DNA of 64,000 nt from a virus. A model generated the notes under the pieces. It worked only from the letters and a program-made list of their open reading frames with translations. It was not told the origin of the DNA and did no database searches. The stretch is taken from UHGV virus genome UHGV-0117053; one strand, written 5' to 3'. This document shows positions 1,750 through 42,690 of the stretch, piece after piece. The number at the start of each line of letters is the position of its first letter. Within the stretch, counting starts at the first letter, position 1. The translations under genes were made by a program, and so were the position numbers.

Positions 1750-2189
1750 TTGGCTGGGGTGTATGCGTTCTTGCGTTAGCCTTAGCCGATCGCTATTTGC
1801 TAAAACGCAAGGACATCACGCATTTAGAACTTGGTGATGTGGAAATTAAACCGGGTTTCATCCGGGTGCCGTTCAAATACCGGTCTAAATTCCCGTTTTT
1901 GCGCGGCGCAACGGTCAGATATTGGATCCGCGATGTTCAGAAGCCGACGACAGTGATTGAAGGCGAACAACGTTGTTTGACGTCGGCTGAACAGGGCGAA
2001 AACAGTGAATGGTTGTACATACCCACTGAATATATGGGTAAAGGAGAGCGACTGTGGCATTTCAACGTCATGGTTACGCATGGCGACTCGTTCATTAACC
2101 CGTTGTATCGGATTTTCCCTGTTACTCAGCAAATCCGCAGAAGTTACGTAATAAATCTCGCACAGGATGTGTCAGATGACGAAAAATAA
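1746..2189 (+). CDS. lydB: Antiholin LydB
   Basis: 147 aa, translationally coupled to lydA; position and size as recalled for P1 lydB. Confidence 0.7.
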   Translation: MIGWGVCVLALALADRYLLKRKDITHLELGDVEIKPGFIRVPFKYRSKFPFLRGATVRYWIRDVQKPTTVIEGEQRCLTSAEQGENSEWLYIPTEYMGKGERLWHFNVMVTHGDSFINPLYRIFPVTQQIRRSYVINLAQDVSDDEK

Positions 2190-17300: not shown

Positions 17301-20300
17301 CGCTACGTGATGACACCGTAGATGAGCATGCACAGGATATGCTTTATGACTTCGTTGCCGCCGGGCGCGTAGCCAGCGCAATGGACTCCGACTCCCACCG
17401 CAAAGAGGCCGCGCGTCGCCGGGTATTGTCGGAGTATTCAGATACCGGCACCGAAAAAGCAGAGAAGTATCCGTACTTTGAGGATATGGGCTTCGATAGT
17501 GTGATCGCTGACGAAGGTCACAACTACCGCAATAGCTATAAAAATGGTCGCGAAGCGTCACAACTGGCCTATCTGCCCACCAGCGCGGTGGCGCAATCGG
17601 CGCGGGATATGGCAATTAAAAACGCGTACCTGATGAAAAAGAATGGTGGGCGCGGACCGGTTCTCCTGACTGCAACGCCAGTCGTTAACACCCCGATCGA
17701 TGCATACAACATGCTTTCTCATGTGCTGCCGAAGGAATACTGGCAGAACATGGGGATCTACGGTCCTGATGACTTCGTTAAATTCTTCGGCAAGACCAGG
17801 CTGGAAACGGTACAGAAAATTAGCGGTGAAGTTGAAGAAAAAATGGCGCTGGTGGGCTTTGAAAACCTTGATGCGCTGCGCGGTATATTCCATCGCTGGG
17901 TAACGCTTAAAACGGCGGAAGACGTTAAGGATACCGTGGAGATCCCGGAGCTGGACGAACACCAGCAGGATGCACCACTTACTGAAGAACAACTGGCGGC
18001 GTATGAAGAATTGCGTCAGCAGGCGGAAGCGGCGGCCAAAGCCAACAATGGCGTAACGACCTCGGTCAATGAAGACGGCGTGATTGAGCACGAGAAAGCC
18101 CGTCCGATCTTCTCAATAATCAGGGATATGGACCGCGTATGTACTGACATGGACCTGTACTATCGCAGGATCACCTATCGTTTCCTGCCGGAGTACGCCG
18201 ATGCGGTGCAGCAGCTGGCGGACAGTTTGCCTAAACAAGCCACCAGCGAAGACGACGACAGTGATGATTCGATCACGCAGCAATCGCAATACTCCCTGAT
18301 AGATAAGGGCGAGTTTATTCAGTTGCAGGTTCCGGAAGCGTTCGAGCAGGAAGTGAATAAGCGCCTGGCCAGGTTTGGCATTGACGAACAGACCGTAACT
18401 CACCCCGTTACGCCCAAATACGCGAAGCTGATTGCCACGCTGAAGGAGTTTTTCCCGGAAGGTAAGCAAATCATCTTCACCGATGAAAAAACGCAACACC
18501 AGAAGCTCAAGCGCATTATCTGCAATGCTCTTAACCTTGAACCTTCAAAGGTGGGGATCCTGAATGCTCAGACGGTTGCCGAGGCAGGTAAAACCGGTAA
18601 GAAACTGAAAGCGGTTAAACCGCCGAAAGAGCTACCGGATGAACCAACAGATGCACAGATAGCGAAATACAACGAGCAAATGGCTCTGTATGACGCCTAT
18701 ATCGCGCAGCAAAATGAAATGTCGTTGGGCGGTCTGGAAAAGATTGCAGCCGACTTCCAGGAGGGCCGGACTCCGATCATCATCTGCAACAAAAAGGCAG
18801 AGGTGGGTATCAACCTGCATCGAGGAACGACGGATATCCACCACCTGACGTTGCCGTGGACACCAGCCAGTATCGCACAACGTAACGGTCGCGGTGCACG
18901 AGTTGGCTCCAACCGTGCAAGCGTTCGCGTTCACTACTACTGCGGCAAGGGGTCTTTCGATGAATACCGACTGAAGACGCTGAAGCGTAAAGCAGGCTGG
19001 ATCTCCGATATCCTCCGTTCAGATAAGTCAGAAATGGAGAACGCCGACGCCAATGACATGATCGAAATGCAGATGTATACCGCGAAGGATGACGGCGAAC
19101 GTCTGGCAATGATGCAGGTTCAAATGGATAAGGCGAAAGCTGCGAAACGCGCTCGCCAGAAAGAACAGGCTACTATCGACCTTCAGAACTACATCAAGGC
19201 GCAGCACGCAGCTGGTGAGGATGTGGAGGTACTTACCGCTGAATTGGAGCGAAGCAAAGCGGAACTTGAAAAGACCACCGCCGACGTCGCCAAATTCAAA
19301 CAGGCGGTAATGGCCAAAGCAGCGGATAACGCAGACTGGAAAGCCCGCTGGGGTAGCGTCCATCACACAGACCGTATGTTGTTAGCACAGTATCGCGCGT
19401 CGTTGAAAAGCGCCATTCAGCGCAAGGCTAATATCTCTCAGGCCATCTCCCGCTATGAGAAATTATTGAACCGTACTCAGAAGGCCGCGACGGATATCAA
19501 ACGCCTGCGCCCGCTGGTGGAGGATGCAATAAATAAAGGCATTCTGGATGTTGATCCTGATCTGGTTAACCATGCGAATGAGTTCCTTGTTATCGGCGAT
19601 CGCTCATGGCGTGTAGGCCAATACTATGATTGTGCCGGTGATATCGTTCGCATTAAGTCGCTGGACTTCGACAGCCAGCGCGCAGACGTGGAGATCATCT
19701 TTACCTTCAAAGGCACCAAATCGGGTAACTGGGATGTGAAGACGCTGGATAAACAGGTTGATGTAACTCCCGATGAAGATGCTGTTATGCAGAAAATCAG
19801 TGGTGGCGTCTCCATCGCCGGGATTAACGACATCATTTCCTGTGACGATTTCTACCGTTTCCAGCAGCGCGGTATGATCAAAATCACTGACTCATACGGC
19901 GTTCAGACTACAGAGTCAGGCTATAGCATTGATTTTGTTGGTTCCTATACGGCCCCACTGAAGCATGCGGTTTACCCGGATCGCCGTGACGGCGCGCTGA
20001 AGTCGTCAATTGCAAAATGGGTGCTTGGTATGATGTCGGAAGGGAATAACCGCCAGATCCGTTCGGCAGAAACATTCCTGGTTGAATTGTTTGGCTCCAA
20101 TTATGGCGATGTAATCGCGTCATACGGAGATACGCTATCCCCTGAAGCAATTCAGGAGAAAATAGCGGATGCGATCGCAAAAATGCCGGAGAAAACAAGC
20201 CAGGGGGCTACTCGTAACGGGGATTCTGAACTTGAGGTCACCAATGCCATTTTCGGTACCCATGAGTTCCGGGCGTCAGATTATGAGATCACCACAGCAC

Positions 20301-24084: not shown

Positions 24085-24645
24085 TTAGTGCATGATGTTT
24101 GCCATCTCATAGGCGTCAGCCAGCAACTCCATCTCTAACTTGTTCAGCAAGGTGAATTCTTTCTTGCCTCCAACCACACCATCGGCATGAACAGGGACCA
24201 GCCAGGGGTATTTTTCTCTTACTTCAGCCGGTGCTGCATGCTGGTGGTGCCATCTACAAAGGGGCAATTGCTTTTTGTGACAACCCGGCGCGGTACGACC
24301 GGAGATATGGTGCAGAGATACCTCTTCAGATATTACTCCATGCATGTAGCAGGCAATGCAGGGGAGAGCGCCAAGAGCATTGGCGATGCGCCGTTCCTCC
24401 GCCGTTGGTGTTCTCCCCTTCAAGCCACGAGATTTTATTTTTACCGCGCTTTTCCGCGTTTTGCTGGCTGGTGGGCGCTCTTTCTGTTTAGCGATACGGC
24501 GGTCGATAGAATCCCGCATTTTCTGATATTGCGATTCTCGCCAAGCGGGGTCAGCCAACTTTTCCCGTTGCCGAGCGATCGCTCGTTCTCTGGCTGCCTT
24601 CTGCCACTCGCGGCGCTGTTCAAGTTTTTGTTCGATTGTTTTCAT
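24085..24645 (-). CDS. ref: Ref, HNH-family recombination enhancement endonuclease
   Basis: 186 aa from MKTIEQKLEQ; HNH-like HHISGRT...CRWHH motifs. Confidence 0.9.
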   Translation of the reverse strand: MKTIEQKLEQRREWQKAARERAIARQREKLADPAWRESQYQKMRDSIDRRIAKQKERPPASKTRKSAVKIKSRGLKGRTPTAEERRIANALGALPCIACYMHGVISEEVSLHHISGRTAPGCHKKQLPLCRWHHQHAAPAEVREKYPWLVPVHADGVVGGKKEFTLLNKLEMELLADAYEMANIMH

Positions 24646-24650
24646 ATGGC

Positions 24651-24676
24651 AAAAAAAAGGCGGCCTAATGGCCGCC
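24651..24676 (-). terminator. GC hairpin plus U8 in the ref leader, 5 nt upstream of the ref ATG
   Basis: Minus-strand GGCGGCC-ATTA-GGCCGCC followed by TTTTTTTT. Confidence 0.5.
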
Positions 24677-24743
24677 AATGATGTCAAGGAGTTAAGTAAT
24701 GGCAACGTCTTCGTAGTTGACAAAAACTGCGGCTTAATTATAG

Positions 24744-24760
24744 CAATCAATTAGAGCAAT
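24744..24760 (-). promoter_or_regulatory. C1 operator upstream of ref (core TTAGAGCAAT conserved)
   Basis: CAATCAATTAGAGCAAT; a second degenerate overlapping copy just upstream. Confidence 0.55.
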
Positions 24761-24891
24761 GGTAGATATTTTGTTAATCGCGAATCACATTTTTTCACTT
24801 CAGTACCTGTGTGCTATACTCCTTCTTGATTGATTGGATGCGGAATACAAACCCGCTCTTTTGTGCAGCCTGGCTCCTTGCCAGGCTTTTT

Positions 24892-25203
24892 TTATTTCAT
24901 CATGGAAGCTGTTAACGCTTTGGATCTTGCTGAACTGATTGAAAGGGCATTGTTTACCTTACCCAGGAGTTCGCCAAATTCCACCATCACTCTAGTAAGC
25001 CCGCGCCGCGCTTCCTCCTCCGTTGCATTCATCACAAAATGTTCAGCACTCCGCATGCTTTTAACGGGGAACGCAACAGATATCGAGTCGATATCAGGCA
25101 TCCTATCGCTCAACTTTACGGTGACAATGACAGATGGTGACTGAATTTGAGAGCTTACAGACAGCACCACATATTTTCCGTCTATTTTGAAATCCTTCCG
25201 CAT
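24892..25203 (-). CDS. cra: Cra-like small protein downstream of cre
   Basis: 103-aa ORF on the cre strand between cre and ref; the opposite-strand ORF is low-complexity. Confidence 0.5.
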   Translation of the reverse strand: MRKDFKIDGKYVVLSVSSQIQSPSVIVTVKLSDRMPDIDSISVAFPVKSMRSAEHFVMNATEEEARRGLTRVMVEFGELLGKVNNALSISSARSKALTASMMK

Positions 25204-25253: not shown

Positions 25254-26285
25254 CTAATCGCCATCTTCCAGCAGGCGCACCATTGCCCCCGTTTCACTAT
25301 CCAGGTTACGGATATAGTTCATGACAATATTTACGTTGGTCCAGCCACCAGCTTGCATGATCTCCGGTATTGAAACTCCGGCGCGGGCCATATCTCGCGC
25401 GGCTCCGACACGGGCACTGTGTCCAGACCAGGCCAGGTATCTCTGACCAGAGTCATCCTTAGCGCCGTAAATCAATCGATGAGTTGCTTCAAAAATCCCT
25501 TCCAGGGCGCGAGTTGATAGCTGGCTGGTGGCAGATGGCGCGGCAACACCATTTTTTCTGACACGGCAAAACAAGTAGTTATTCGGATCATCAGCCACAC
25601 CAGAGACAGAAATCCATCGCTCGACCAGTTTAGTTACCCCCAGGCTAAGTGCCTTCTCTACACCTGCGGTGCTAACCAGCGTTTTCGTTCTGCCAATATG
25701 GATTAACATTCTCCCACCGTCAGTACGTGAGATATCTTTAACCCTGATCCTGGCAATTTCGGCTATACGTAATAGGGTGTTATAAGCAATCCCCAGAAAT
25801 GCCAGATTACGTATATCCTGGCAGCGATCGCTATTTTCCATGAGTGAACGAACCTGGTCGAAATCAGTGCGTTCGAACGCCAGTGCCTGTTTTGCACGTT
25901 CACCGGCATCAACGTTTTCTTTTCGGATCCGTCGCATGACCAGTGAAACAGCATTACTGTCACTTGGTCGTGGCAGCCCGGACCGACGATGAAGCATGTT
26001 TAGCTGGCCCAAATGTTGCTGGATAGTTTTTACTGCCAGACCGCGCGCCTGAAGATATAGAAGATAATCGCGAACATCTTCAGGTTCTGCGGGAAACCAT
26101 TTCCGGTTATTCAACTTGCACCATGCCGCCCACGATCGGCAAACGGACAGAAGCATTTTCCAGGTATGCTCAGAAAACGCCTGGCGATCCCTGAACATGT
26201 CCATCAGGTTCTTGCGAACCTCATCACTCGTTGCATCGACCGGTAATGCAGGCAAATTTTGGTGTACGGTCAGTAAATTGGACAT
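25254..26285 (-). CDS. cre: Cre site-specific tyrosine recombinase
   Basis: 343 aa beginning MSNLLTVHQNLPALPVDATSDEVRKNLMDMFRDRQAFSEH and ending MVRLLEDGD. Confidence 0.98.
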   Translation of the reverse strand: MSNLLTVHQNLPALPVDATSDEVRKNLMDMFRDRQAFSEHTWKMLLSVCRSWAAWCKLNNRKWFPAEPEDVRDYLLYLQARGLAVKTIQQHLGQLNMLHRRSGLPRPSDSNAVSLVMRRIRKENVDAGERAKQALAFERTDFDQVRSLMENSDRCQDIRNLAFLGIAYNTLLRIAEIARIRVKDISRTDGGRMLIHIGRTKTLVSTAGVEKALSLGVTKLVERWISVSGVADDPNNYLFCRVRKNGVAAPSATSQLSTRALEGIFEATHRLIYGAKDDSGQRYLAWSGHSARVGAARDMARAGVSIPEIMQAGGWTNVNIVMNYIRNLDSETGAMVRLLEDGD

Positions 26286-26292
26286 TTAACAC

Positions 26293-26514
26293 TCAGATAA
26301 TGGTTTTAAGTAAAGTGTACAGGATCGGCTCTGCCTTTACCTGTTTATGGTTCTCGTCATAGAAACGCCAGCGACCGCGCGTGCGTTCTATTTTCTCTTC
26401 ACCGCGCGATAATGACAGTTGACAACTATCACGATCAAACCCTTTTGCCCGCCAGTAACCACGGTTTTTCTCAAGCTCAAGATGAGTGGACACTTTGGCA
26501 GCTGAATATCCCAT
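26293..26514 (-). CDS. Small upstream ORF (73 aa) immediately preceding cre
   Basis: ATG preceded by AGAGGTG RBS and the conserved CCAATCAATCA leader; stop 7 nt before the cre ATG. Confidence 0.4.
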   Translation of the reverse strand: MGYSAAKVSTHLELEKNRGYWRAKGFDRDSCQLSLSRGEEKIERTRGRWRFYDENHKQVKAEPILYTLLKTII

Positions 26515-26702
26515 TTTTCACCTCTGATTGATTGGTGGTGCTAAGTGCGCTACGCGAAATCTGTAGGACTAACACCGCCAACATTTCGCAGATTTTACGT
26601 AGCGCTACCTTGATCAAATGATCAAGTGATCACTATTTGACCTGATAAGGTATTGAACTGTATGGATTTACAGGTAAATTGATCATGTTCAATAACCCTT
26701 AA

Positions 26703-41260: not shown

Positions 41261-41989
41261 TTATTCCTGAATGCGCTTAAACTCGATTACCCACACCCAG
41301 GGATTAGCGTTCCAGCTTTCTTCACCATAGATGGATTCCCACAGGCGCTGGAACGCAACCTTGGCCATTGCGAAATCCCCCTTGGGAGTAAGGAATGTTC
41401 CCGGGTGATCAGGAAGCAAACTTCCAGCAGGCGGAACGCCCTCATCCCTTGCATCGCATTCGCTGATATCGTTCAACCGCTCAACGCGCACGTTGGTAAT
41501 TTCCAACAGGATGCGTGATGCCCATCGCGGCATGTGAATTGATGGACGCCACCCACCATCAAACTTTTCATTCACAGTGTGAGGTTTCCAGTCGGCATCA
41601 TCGGGTATCGACCATAAACCGTAATCACCAGGCTTTTGCTCACAACTGGCCCGATAAATCCTTGCTGCGTTCTTCTCATCGCCACGACAAAGGTTGTCGT
41701 TCCAGTCCACACTGCAACCATCTTCATTGCCTAATATCGCCCATGTTTCACGAACCCAAATTCGATCGCCGACGATACCAAAGGGGCAATTGAAAACACT
41801 GCTTACACCATCAGCCCCGTACCACTGAAAACCTGCACCAATTTCCCTAACCATCACTGGTGCTTCTGGACCAACTTCCGCAGGCTGATTTTTCATTATC
41901 CGCCGCGTCTGCGTTTTCCTTCCTTCGAGGATGGCTCGGACCATCTCATCGTTGAAAATCATGCCGCGCTCTTTCACTTCGCCTTTCAT
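41261..41989 (-). CDS. ASCH-like domain protein
   Basis: 242 aa; N-terminal IFNDEMVRAILEGRKTQTRR typical of ASCH-type phage proteins; AAGGGGGA RBS. Confidence 0.6.
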   Translation of the reverse strand: MKGEVKERGMIFNDEMVRAILEGRKTQTRRIMKNQPAEVGPEAPVMVREIGAGFQWYGADGVSSVFNCPFGIVGDRIWVRETWAILGNEDGCSVDWNDNLCRGDEKNAARIYRASCEQKPGDYGLWSIPDDADWKPHTVNEKFDGGWRPSIHMPRWASRILLEITNVRVERLNDISECDARDEGVPPAGSLLPDHPGTFLTPKGDFAMAKVAFQRLWESIYGEESWNANPWVWVIEFKRIQE

Positions 41990-41998
41990 GCATCCCCC

Positions 41999-42085
41999 TT
42001 ACCCATGCGCGACGATGCCGCCAAAAGTGATAGAGAACAGCCAGAAATAGATCGCGGCCATAATGATTTTGAATGCCGTGTTCAT
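41999..42085 (-). CDS. Candidate 28-aa hydrophobic leader peptide (MNTAFKIIMAAIYFWLFSITFGGIVAHG)
   Basis: Preceded by CCAATCAATCA-CAGGAG leader; stop lies in the RBS of the ASCH-like gene. Confidence 0.35.
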   Translation of the reverse strand: MNTAFKIIMAAIYFWLFSITFGGIVAHG

Positions 42086-42167
42086 ATTTTCAGCTCCTGT
42101 GATTGATTGGATACATGCCGCGCCTTACGGCATGTTTTTATTTTCACTTTCTCTGTTTTAAAAATCA

Positions 42168-42184
42168 AGATTTATTAGAGCAAT
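42168..42184 (-). promoter_or_regulatory. C1 operator
   Basis: AGATTTATTAGAGCAAT, 1 mismatch. Confidence 0.7.
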
Positions 42185-42690
42185 TATTGTTGATGGAGAA
42201 GCGCGTTTTCATACTCCCTGACCATTAACGTAAGTACGCCGTGACTCCTGAAAACACGCGCCACTTCAATCTTATCTTCCAGCGCGAACGCAATTTTACT
42301 TAGACCAATTTTCTTCAGGAGATCAATCTTTGCTGGACCGTCATTTCTGTCATCGGTGGCAGGACGCATAGATAGCAAAGGCTCCGCCCCATTTGTTACG
42401 TGCTTACGCAACCAGGCTCGTGTTTTATCCCTGGCTATCTCACAGCGCCCGGTTACAAACCAGAGGGTGTAAATGCCGGACAACTGGCGCACCATATCAA
42501 TAACTGGAGTGATGGGAGCATCAGTGTCACAGGCAAGGTTAAACTCGTTCCAGTGCTCTGTTAATGCACCTTTGCCAGGTGGTGGAAGTAAATGCAGCCT
42601 GTCTTCCGTTGCCTCTGATATCGTCCCATCAATATCTACTATGACGATGTACGGACGTTCCTGGTGTGCGTGTTTATTGAAAATACTCAA
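42184..42690 (-). CDS. HAD-superfamily phosphatase-like protein
   Basis: 168 aa; VIVDIDGTI (DxDGT) motif near the N-terminus. Confidence 0.6.
   Translation of the reverse strand: MSIFNKHAHQERPYIVIVDIDGTISEATEDRLHLLPPPGKGALTEHWNEFNLACDTDAPITPVIDMVRQLSGIYTLWFVTGRCEIARDKTRAWLRKHVTNGAEPLLSMRPATDDRNDGPAKIDLLKKIGLSKIAFALEDKIEVARVFRSHGVLTLMVREYENALLHQQ

Follow-up and report, generated by a model that had tools for sequence, protein, structure and literature searches.

Why does the same 11-nucleotide motif recur on one strand of a P1-like phage genome, and are its copies alike in function? The stretch of DNA analysed here (hereafter called the window; UHGV virus genome UHGV-0117053, 64,000 nucleotides) is, judging from its sequence, a P1-like phage-plasmid. 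Approximately 3.5 kb around the locus of interest share 96-98% identity with phages P1, P7, SJ46, phiW39 and RCS47. P1, from which the Cre-lox system originates, is one of the founding models of phage genetics, and its relatives are phage-plasmids widespread in Enterobacteriaceae, many of them carrying resistance genes. The gene order of P1 (AF234172) is found on the minus strand of the window, with lox, the Dam-controlled cre promoters, cra, cre, c8, Oref with the promoters P2ref and P1ref, and ref. A second region harbouring the motif corresponds to the P1 genes pmgR-pmgS-pap, followed by the operator Op88/OpmgT and then pmgT. The relevant features are the following.

26293..26514, minus strand: cra, 73 aa, the first cistron (PHROG 804, to which no function is assigned)
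25254-26285, minus strand: cre, with its ATG at 26285, 7 nt past the cra stop codon
24892..25203, minus strand: c8, 103 aa, convergent with the predicted sRNA gene described below, the terminator hairpin region being common to both
24744..24760, minus strand: Oref (C1 operator) with the ref promoters, downstream of motif copy iii on this strand
41999..42085, minus strand: 28-aa hydrophobic leader ORF MNTAFKIIMAAIYFWLFSITFGGIVAHG, whose TAA is 9 nt ahead of the pmgT ATG
41261-41989, minus strand: pmgT, the gene following the 28-aa ORF
42763-44025, minus strand: pmgS, which carries target site 3 (see below)
42168..42184, minus strand: C1 operator Op88/OpmgT ATTGCTCTAATAAATCT, 74 nt upstream of target site 2 (see below)

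A pattern search over the whole window found exactly three copies of the 11-mer CCAATCAATCA, all on the minus strand, at 26525-26535 (copy i), 42100-42110 (copy ii) and 24827-24837 (copy iii). Shuffled sequences contain 0.10 copies on average, and none of 100 shuffles reached three. The statement of an earlier note on this DNA that the motif occurs at least three times on the minus strand is thereby borne out, and this number is beyond chance. No further exact copy was found in the ~40 kb of P1 outside the window. The core of the motif is the 10-mer CCAATCAATC, with five copies in the window versus 0.30 expected. One of the two additional copies, absent from the earlier note, is a fourth minus-strand occurrence in pmgS (43996-44005). 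The other, on the plus strand (52949-52958), is antisense within a 332-aa ORF and is probably irrelevant. C1-operator-related and Chi-related 10-mers are also among the most repeated 10-mers of the window.

Copies i and ii have the organization that had been described for them. Copy i is followed by GAGGTG, AAAA and the ATG of the 73-aa ORF, i.e. cra (26514-26293), whose stop codon is located 7 nt before the cre ATG, and copy ii by CAGGAG, 8 nt and the ATG of the 28-aa hydrophobic ORF (42085-41999) that heads pmgT. The motif had been proposed to represent a translational-control or sRNA-target module; the sRNA-target half of this proposal fits copies i and ii, both of which are in single-stranded leaders directly 5' of Shine-Dalgarno (SD) sequences, and it does not fit copy iii. 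The label 'ASCH-like' given to the pmgT product was not substantiated, as no Pfam match was obtained at E<=0.01 and only T4_Y13H (E=0.11) appeared up to E=10.

Copy iii is best read as the 5' end of an unannotated, ~66-nt sRNA gene of P1-like phages, encoded on the plus strand. The elements predicted at this locus are as follows.

24792..24820, plus strand: predicted sigma-70 promoter (promoter scan), with -35 TTTTCA (24792-24797), a 17-nt spacer and an extended -10 TGcTATACT (24812-24820)
24828..24894, plus strand: predicted trans-acting sRNA of ~66 nt, corresponding to ~complement(1827..1894) of P1 AF234172
24828..24837, plus strand: seed GAUUGAUUGG at the predicted 5' end, complement of copy iii, recognized by its invariance across variants
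24836..24859, plus strand: hairpin 1, GGA.GCGG-loop-CCGCUCU (fold and covariation)
24860-24866, plus strand: linker UUUGUGC between hairpin 1 and the terminator (predicted fold)
24867..24894, plus strand: Rho-independent terminator AGCCUGGC-UCCUU-GCCAGGCU followed by U7 (terminator scan; in DNA, AGCCTGGC-TCCTT-GCCAGGCT and T7)

Consensus scans predicted both a promoter and a Rho-independent terminator, as expected for an independent transcription unit. The promoter scored 9 of 12 consensus matches, plus the TG. The -35 of the P1-type promoter is weak, and that of the homologous locus in Cronobacter phage JK004 fails the scan, leaving only the extended -10. The predicted +1 is the G at 24828, 7 nt past the -10, with which GATTGATTGG, complementary to the motif, begins. 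At the other end of the gene, the U-tract of the terminator overlaps the c8 stop codon of the opposite strand. There is no operator over the sRNA promoter, Oref being located ~30 bp upstream of its -35 on the plus strand, from which we infer that the sRNA would be on in lysogens. The predicted fold of the 66-nt RNA (-23.2 kcal/mol, z=-3.25) comprises ~8 free nucleotides at the 5' end, a hairpin, the linker, the terminator hairpin and a U-tail. This predicted layout, with a free 5' seed, a hairpin, a U-rich linker and a terminator with its U-tail, is the standard one of enterobacterial Hfq-type sRNAs, and by analogy the RNA is probably of that type; it would be transcribed from its own promoter and would depend on Hfq. 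No feature is annotated at complement(1827..1894) in the P1 record AF234172, though hundreds of regulatory features are listed there.

The locus is well conserved. With >=90% identity as threshold, a 116-bp unit was recovered from 697 PLSDB plasmids and 18 phage records, and in plasmids it remains beside c8 even where a Tn3-family transposon, other cargo or an icd/ant module has taken the place of ref. Among P1-type variants, substitutions are confined to the promoter spacer, the discriminator, the two loops and the linker. Diverged relatives were identified in JK004, whose Cre shows 79% amino acid identity, and in the IMG/VR contigs L029, L030/L120 and L097. All of them keep TGnTATACT, then exactly 7 variable nucleotides, then GATTGATTGG; the promoter spacer and the upstream sequence vary among P1-, JK004-, L030- and L097-type loci around the invariant extended -10. 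All 25 distinct sRNA variants recovered agree in the first 9 nt of the seed, and a G10U change was seen in two E. albertii plasmids only. The seed is predicted to be unpaired in all four clades, except for its last 2-4 nt.

The structure of the RNA is conserved as well: in the diverged relatives, both hairpins differ in sequence and still pair. Representatives of the four clades fold into the same architecture, with z values of -3.0 to -3.6. In hairpin 1, four of the seven pairs show double (compensatory) changes (GCGG/CCGC, GUAG/CUAC and UGCA.GGA/UCC.UGCA), and in the terminator stem, where pairing is 100% in 18 sequences, one pair changes from U-A to C-G and the next from G-C to G-U. In the structure alignment, which was fitted to the model and represents approximately four independent lineages only, 96.6% of the cells are paired versus 89.2% after shuffling, with double changes at five pairs; the covariation score was reached by none of 500 shuffles, and slid registers are 34-58% paired. 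When a covariance model was built from 16 sRNA variants, its only match in the window was this locus (95 bits, E=7e-20), and JK004 and the other loci gave one match each, at 52-64 bits.

We also delineated how far the system extends. Phage D6, whose Dre recombinase is 41% identical to Cre, harbours neither the seed motif nor a model match in its dre-side locus, and no seed motif is present at its pmgS, ref and dre starts, which indicates that the system does not reach that far; a 10-mer enrichment listing for D6 was too noisy for use. The linker-plus-terminator pattern yielded three P1-type loci only over the genome contigs, among GC-rich chance matches, and the pattern ACCAATCAATCACNGG gave 80 unrelated chance matches in viral contigs.

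If copy iii represents the regulator, the other minus-strand copies are its candidate targets, the seed being predicted to pair in trans with CCAAUCAAUC in phage mRNAs. We consider it likely that the locus encodes a functional base-pairing sRNA acting on the following sites.

26526..26535, minus strand: target site 1, in the leader of cra, where the seed match spans -21 to -12 relative to the AUG and immediately precedes the SD GAGGUG
42101..42110, minus strand: target site 2, where the seed match covers -25 to -16 of the 28-aa ORF, 2 nt 5' of the SD
42113..42135, minus strand: stem-loop at the predicted 5' end of the pmgT-leader mRNA, placed relative to the annotated -10 of P1pmgT, which also scores as a plus-strand terminator
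43996..44005, minus strand: target site 3, within pmgS, where the seed match covers +21 to +30 (codons 7-10)

Alignment of 6 P1-like plasmids showed no change in the cra site. Of the 98 IMG/VR loci with the sRNA gene, 77 have this site, which is also retained in the diverged leaders of JK004 and of an L097-type contig. Target site 2 is present in P1 as well, although the 28-aa ORF carries no annotation there. The pmgS site is found at the same place in P1, JK004, a JK004-like contig and an L097-type contig despite differing flanking codons; part of its conservation could reflect coding constraints (Q-S-I). In the predicted leader folds, the sites are mostly unpaired and downstream of a 5' stem-loop, and the SD is not sequestered; the cra site is partly paired. 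The core duplex has a predicted energy of -12.2 kcal/mol, and with flanks the targets in the window range from -15.7 to -22.4 kcal/mol, the latter value corresponding to target site 2, where pairing extends to 12-14 bp. A sliding 20-nt duplex scan of the window and JK004 did not separate the targets (-21.6 and -22.4 kcal/mol) from other sites (~-20 to -22 kcal/mol). Such a scan is poor in specificity because it ignores the structure of the sRNA, and we relied instead on exact seed matches and their placement.

The earlier note had also described a hairpin on the opposite strand just beyond each motif copy. Such hairpins are indeed present at copy iii (24867-24887 followed by T7) and copy ii (42113-42135 followed by TTTTTATTTT), that at copy i being weak, and they do not constitute one shared feature. 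Those at copy iii are the sRNA's own hairpins, and that at copy ii is more likely an mRNA 5' stem-loop, since its equivalents in JK004 have no T-run on the opposite strand. The possibility that target site 2 holds another plus-strand copy of the sRNA was rejected, as neither a plus-strand promoter nor a model match was found there.

JK004 provides a further view of the putative regulon. Its genome contains the 10-mer six times versus ~0.28 expected, always on the gene-sense strand; one copy is the sRNA gene, and the five others are all located between -26 and +30 of start codons, as follows.

JK004, sense strand: start region of gene_104, which codes for a small membrane protein
JK004, sense strand: codons 7-10 of pmgS, as in P1
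JK004, sense strand: leader of gene_94, a small hydrophobic ORF after pap, the analogue of target site 2
JK004, sense strand: leader of the cra-like gene_62, the first ORF after lox, the analogue of target site 1
JK004, sense strand: site abutting the ATG of gene_52, which codes for Ref (Pfam PF16786, E=1e-41)

The last of these makes ref a predicted target in JK004. Counting the three sites of the window and the five of JK004, each of these complementary sites has the sense orientation and falls between -26 and +30 of a start codon. An A directly follows the seed match on its 3' side in seven of the eight targets, which fits a transcript beginning at the G of the seed; a similar flanking A has reportedly been described for RybB targets.

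The base that follows the seed offers the best available sign, from sequence comparison, of direct RNA-RNA contact. Nucleotide 11 of the sRNA is C in the JK004 type, and the base 5' of the target 10-mer is G in 5/5 sites, so that the two can pair; composition alone is unlikely to account for this. In the L097 type, nucleotide 11 is U, and it faces an A at both recovered targets (the cra-like leader and pmgS). In the P1 type, nucleotide 11 is A, which is paired with a U at the 28-aa-ORF site and left unpaired by an A at both cra and pmgS. As the seed is invariant, covariation is limited to position 11, where the P1 type is mismatched at two of its three sites. The two E. albertii plasmids with the G10U variant show no compensating change in any of their three targets.

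The putative targets share a further property. A same-strand ATTGCTCTAAT operator is located ~74-321 nt upstream of 3/3 targets in the window and 4/5 in JK004, and those ahead of pmgS and pmgT are the annotated operators OpmgR (Op86) and OpmgT (Op88). The predicted sRNA regulon therefore overlaps that of the C1 repressor.

The best reading of these observations is a trans-acting sRNA that represses the translation of C1-controlled early transcripts. The small gene, flanked by c8 and ref, which are both on the other strand, would yield an ~66-nt RNA from its own extended -10 promoter, and the free first ten nucleotides of this RNA would pair with their complement in the cra, 28-aa ORF and pmgS mRNAs. 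Since pairing at -26 to -1 overlaps the 30S footprint, we propose that initiation on the first cistron would be prevented, and that the genes coupled to it downstream, namely cre after cra and pmgT after the 28-aa ORF, would be expressed less as well. The site in pmgS, which belongs to the C1-controlled pmgR-pmgS-pap operon, is at +21 to +30, just beyond the range of known direct initiation block, and pairing might there act through decay rather than direct occlusion. Early transcripts controlled at the DNA level by the C1 repressor would in this way be subject to a second, post-transcriptional lock or threshold. We hold the direction of regulation, i.e. repression, and the physiological role with less confidence than the base-pairing itself.

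Published gene-level RNA-seq data for P1vir are pertinent to the direction of regulation. In a delta-hfq host, pmgS and pap are over-induced and pmgR is reduced, and the cra, cre and pmgT mRNAs are under-induced (bioRxiv 10.64898/2025.12.28.696737). The increase of pmgS and pap concomitant with a decrease of pmgR, which is upstream in the operon and upstream of the seed site, fits repression, as circumstantial evidence. The under-induction of cra, cre and pmgT does not fit simple Hfq-dependent destabilisation; these data report on mRNA and not on translation, and global effects are large. The lower levels of these three mRNAs could indicate instead that the sRNA pairs with its targets and activates them, by protecting them from RNase E or by opening an inhibitory fold, and the partial pairing of the cra site in its predicted leader fold would agree with the latter. 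A related proposal is that the sRNA mainly targets host genes, as its seed overlaps that of OmrA, which contains AUUGAUUGG. We deem these possibilities unlikely, in that the sites are mostly predicted to be unpaired with the SD free, and that sites at -26 to -1 overlap the ribosome footprint, which is the usual geometry of repression.

We consider it very unlikely that the three 11-mers are equivalent cis-acting leader modules, each made of the motif, an SD and a small upstream ORF, with a decayed ORF at copy iii, in which the motif would be a translational enhancer or standby site or the binding site of a factor. The earlier note had treated the three copies as equivalent leaders, with a degenerate ATG-TGA at copy iii. 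A C/A-rich unstructured stretch 5' of the SD could aid ribosome loading. An SD and a small first ORF do come after copies i and ii, and an SD-like AAGAAGGAG follows copy iii; an enhancer role and an sRNA-target role are, moreover, compatible with each other. Copy iii had been assigned to the ref leader, but it is upstream of the annotated C1 operator Oref, P2ref and P1ref. In addition, GAAAAAATGTGA, taken as a leader element there, is the complement of the -35 region of the plus-strand promoter, and AAGAAGGAG is the complement of the -10 to +1 stretch. This SD-like sequence corresponds to the non-conserved discriminator of the plus-strand promoter and is not kept in the JK004 homologue, which has GCGAATG and no start codon. 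When each copy was inspected for a leader, an SD and a small ORF, copies i and ii had all three, and copy iii had no ORF and no SD in JK004. What is conserved around copy iii, with compensatory changes, is the plus-strand promoter, hairpin and terminator, and copy iii thus appears as the antisense image of the predicted regulator gene rather than as a third leader. Finally, sites within pmgS or abutting the ref ATG without an SD do not fit an enhancer acting upstream of an SD. As for the action on ref that had been ascribed to the module, the ref start region in the window has no seed match, whereas that of JK004 has one.

It is highly improbable that the plus-strand RNA acts in cis only, as an antisense or terminator element against c8-to-ref read-through or as the c8 terminator, with the other 10-mers unrelated to it: any c8 read-through transcript would be complementary to the RNA over its whole length and the hairpin directly follows the c8 stop codon, but no U-run follows this hairpin on the c8 strand, and a cis-only role leaves unexplained the invariance of the seed while the rest of the RNA diverges, the tracking of the target-flanking base by nucleotide 11, and the recurrence of the 10-mer in gene-sense orientation in start regions (three more in the window and five in JK004, with ~0.3 expected).

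We searched for known counterparts of the putative trans-acting sRNA. With Rfam 15 at gathering score, only three tRNAs and no sRNA family were detected in the whole window. At E<=10 on the locus, the best match was SorX, with 22.6 bits versus a gathering score of 46.6, and it was driven by the terminator; with this same permissive cut-off, E<=10, the OmrA-B model found nothing in 24700-24960. No earlier description emerged from literature searches for the subject and for the sequence itself, whose coverage is incomplete so that a prior report is possible.

The candidate nevertheless resembles several characterized regulators. Like RybB, OmrA/OmrB and the prophage-associated DicF, AgvB, AsxR and StxS, it is predicted to have its own promoter, a 5'-terminal single-stranded seed and a terminator with a U-tail. 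It also resembles Hfq-dependent 5'-seed sRNAs in its size (~60-90 nt for the latter), in its internal hairpin and U-rich stretch, and in having several targets at or near the ribosome-binding site (RBS) with an A flanking the seed match. In contrast with those listed above, its predicted regulon is made up not of host genes but of early transcripts of the phage itself that are under C1 control. Prophage-encoded 5'-seed sRNAs are a well-known kind, to which the candidate would belong; its locus is next to cre in a classic phage, and its regulon is predicted from sequence only.

Comparison with the c4 antisense RNA of P1 and P7 is also instructive. This RNA, encoded in the immI immunity region, pairs at the RBS of the small first ORF icd and blocks the coupled ant gene. 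Similarly, the candidate sRNA is predicted to block a first small ORF and the coupled downstream gene. However, c4 is cut from the very transcript that it regulates and uses two loops against two sites, whereas the candidate would have its own promoter and terminator, a linear 5' seed and several far-off targets; immI itself is outside the window. In a late-2025 preprint on Hfq and P1, c4 is the sole P1 regulatory RNA named (bioRxiv 10.64898/2025.12.28.696737). There are similarities as well with type I toxin-antitoxin systems (TisB/IstR-1, ShoB/OhsC, Zor/Orz), in which small hydrophobic ORFs are found behind a 5' stem-loop and pairing takes place beside the SD. Targets of this sort are the 28-aa ORF in the window and the gene_94 and gene_104 products in JK004. 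In contrast with type I systems, the small ORFs head longer operons, and the cra, pmgS and ref targets are not toxin-like.

If confirmed, a functional sRNA at this locus would add a post-transcriptional layer to the C1/c4 immunity circuitry and would be the first predicted regulator of cra-cre translation. It would also account for the recurrent motif of the window and represent a clear case of a prophage sRNA regulating the phage's own repressor-controlled genes. A more speculative proposal, possible but doubtful as a whole, is that it represents a second immunity RNA of P1 and its relatives: a constitutive trans-acting sRNA that would co-repress the early transcripts of the C1 regulon (cra-cre, pmgR-pmgS-pap and pmgT, plus ref in some relatives) and thereby set a threshold for lytic commitment and for the level of Cre. 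The sRNA gene abuts c8, a locus involved in the establishment of lysogeny, and the classical clear-plaque c8 phenotype might hence map wholly or partly to the RNA rather than to the putative C8 protein.

The overlap with OmrA was examined in the E. coli genome. The 9-mer AUUGAUUGG is common to the seed and to the conserved 5' region of E. coli OmrA (b4444), as verified in MG1655. In OmrA, it is located at nt 10-18 and not at the 5' end, and the rest of that RNA, including its terminator, is unrelated to the P1 sRNA; the likeness is a resemblance and not family membership. OmrA could form ~11 bp with the cra leader (-18.1 kcal/mol), and, conversely, the OmrA-like seed of the phage RNA might reach host envelope genes.

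In P1vir growing in delta-hfq hosts, pmgS and pap, which form a single operon with pmgR, go up while pmgR goes down (bioRxiv 10.64898/2025.12.28.696737). The break point between down and up in the pmgR-pmgS-pap operon coincides with the position of the match to the phage sRNA seed, at pmgS codons 7-10.

The phage sRNA seed (window 24828-24837) and the conserved 5' region of the host sRNA OmrA have the 9-mer AUUGAUUGG in common; OmrB carries AUUGAUAGG instead.

NC_000913.3 2976102-2976189 (L169): OmrA locus of E. coli K-12

Approximately 11 bp are possible between the cra leader and OmrA (CACCAAUCAAU), with a computed duplex energy of -18.1 kcal/mol. Cross-talk between phage targets and host OmrA, or between OmrA targets and the phage sRNA, is conceivable.

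Among the predicted targets, the leader of pmgT harbours a small hydrophobic ORF that lacks an annotation in the P1 record.

41999-42085, minus strand: 28-aa ORF (P1 AF234172, ~84382-84468)

According to a remark in that record, the stretch with this ORF is 96-98% identical to DNA located 3' of the hsd loci of EcoDXXI and R124/3. In the E. albertii plasmid p2RM10507 a type I R-M system, in place of pmgT, comes after the leader and small ORF. The module made of the leader and the 28-aa ORF seems to move independently of pmgT.

Two more targets are predicted in the Cronobacter phage JK004, both coding for small membrane-type proteins.

L168 23346-23531, minus strand: small membrane-type protein
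L168 ~17734-17896, minus strand: small membrane-type protein

Both are preceded by near-identical 5' hairpins (GGCCGCACGC...GCGGCC), and the combination of hairpin, seed site and SD looks like a duplicated leader cassette. The annotated start of JK004 gene_94 appears to be too far downstream.

Strong hairpins followed by U8-9 are found a few nucleotides 5' of the ref start codon in both phages, 3' of a C1-controlled promoter.

Window 24659-24676, minus strand: terminator-like hairpin, GGCGGCC-ATTA-GGCCGCC+T8, just ahead of the ref ATG at 24644
JK004 L167 ~42403-42430, minus strand: terminator-like hairpin, GACGGTC-TTCG-GACCGTC+T8

This element could be an attenuator in the leader or a module that binds Hfq, to judge by its appearance. 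The Oref variant ATTGCTCTAATTGATTG (24744-24760, minus strand) includes TTGATTG, which resembles the sRNA seed GATTGATTGG ~70 bp away, a likeness that is probably coincidental. Over the whole window, the commonest 10-mers are words of the GCTGGTGG type, related to Chi, and C1-operator cores of the ATTGCTCTAAT family, for which there are 17 operator-like sites; GATTGATTGG, with five occurrences, is likewise among the top repeated 10-mers.

In four P1-like plasmids (pUTME-12-1, pTetA_020022, p2RM10507 and p2RM10705; L003-L006) other DNA takes the place of ref: a Tn3-family transposon, an ester cyclase region or an additional antirepressor module of the icd/ant type. These plasmids still carry cra, cre, c8 and the sRNA unit. 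The E. albertii plasmids L005, L006 and L172+L173 have a naturally altered seed, GAUUGAUUGU (G10U), and their three target sites are all unchanged, providing a possible natural test of the importance of the tenth pair.

Finally, Rfam identifies three tRNA genes in the window.

55467-55539, minus strand: tRNA gene
57170-57242, minus strand: tRNA gene
57248-57320, minus strand: tRNA gene
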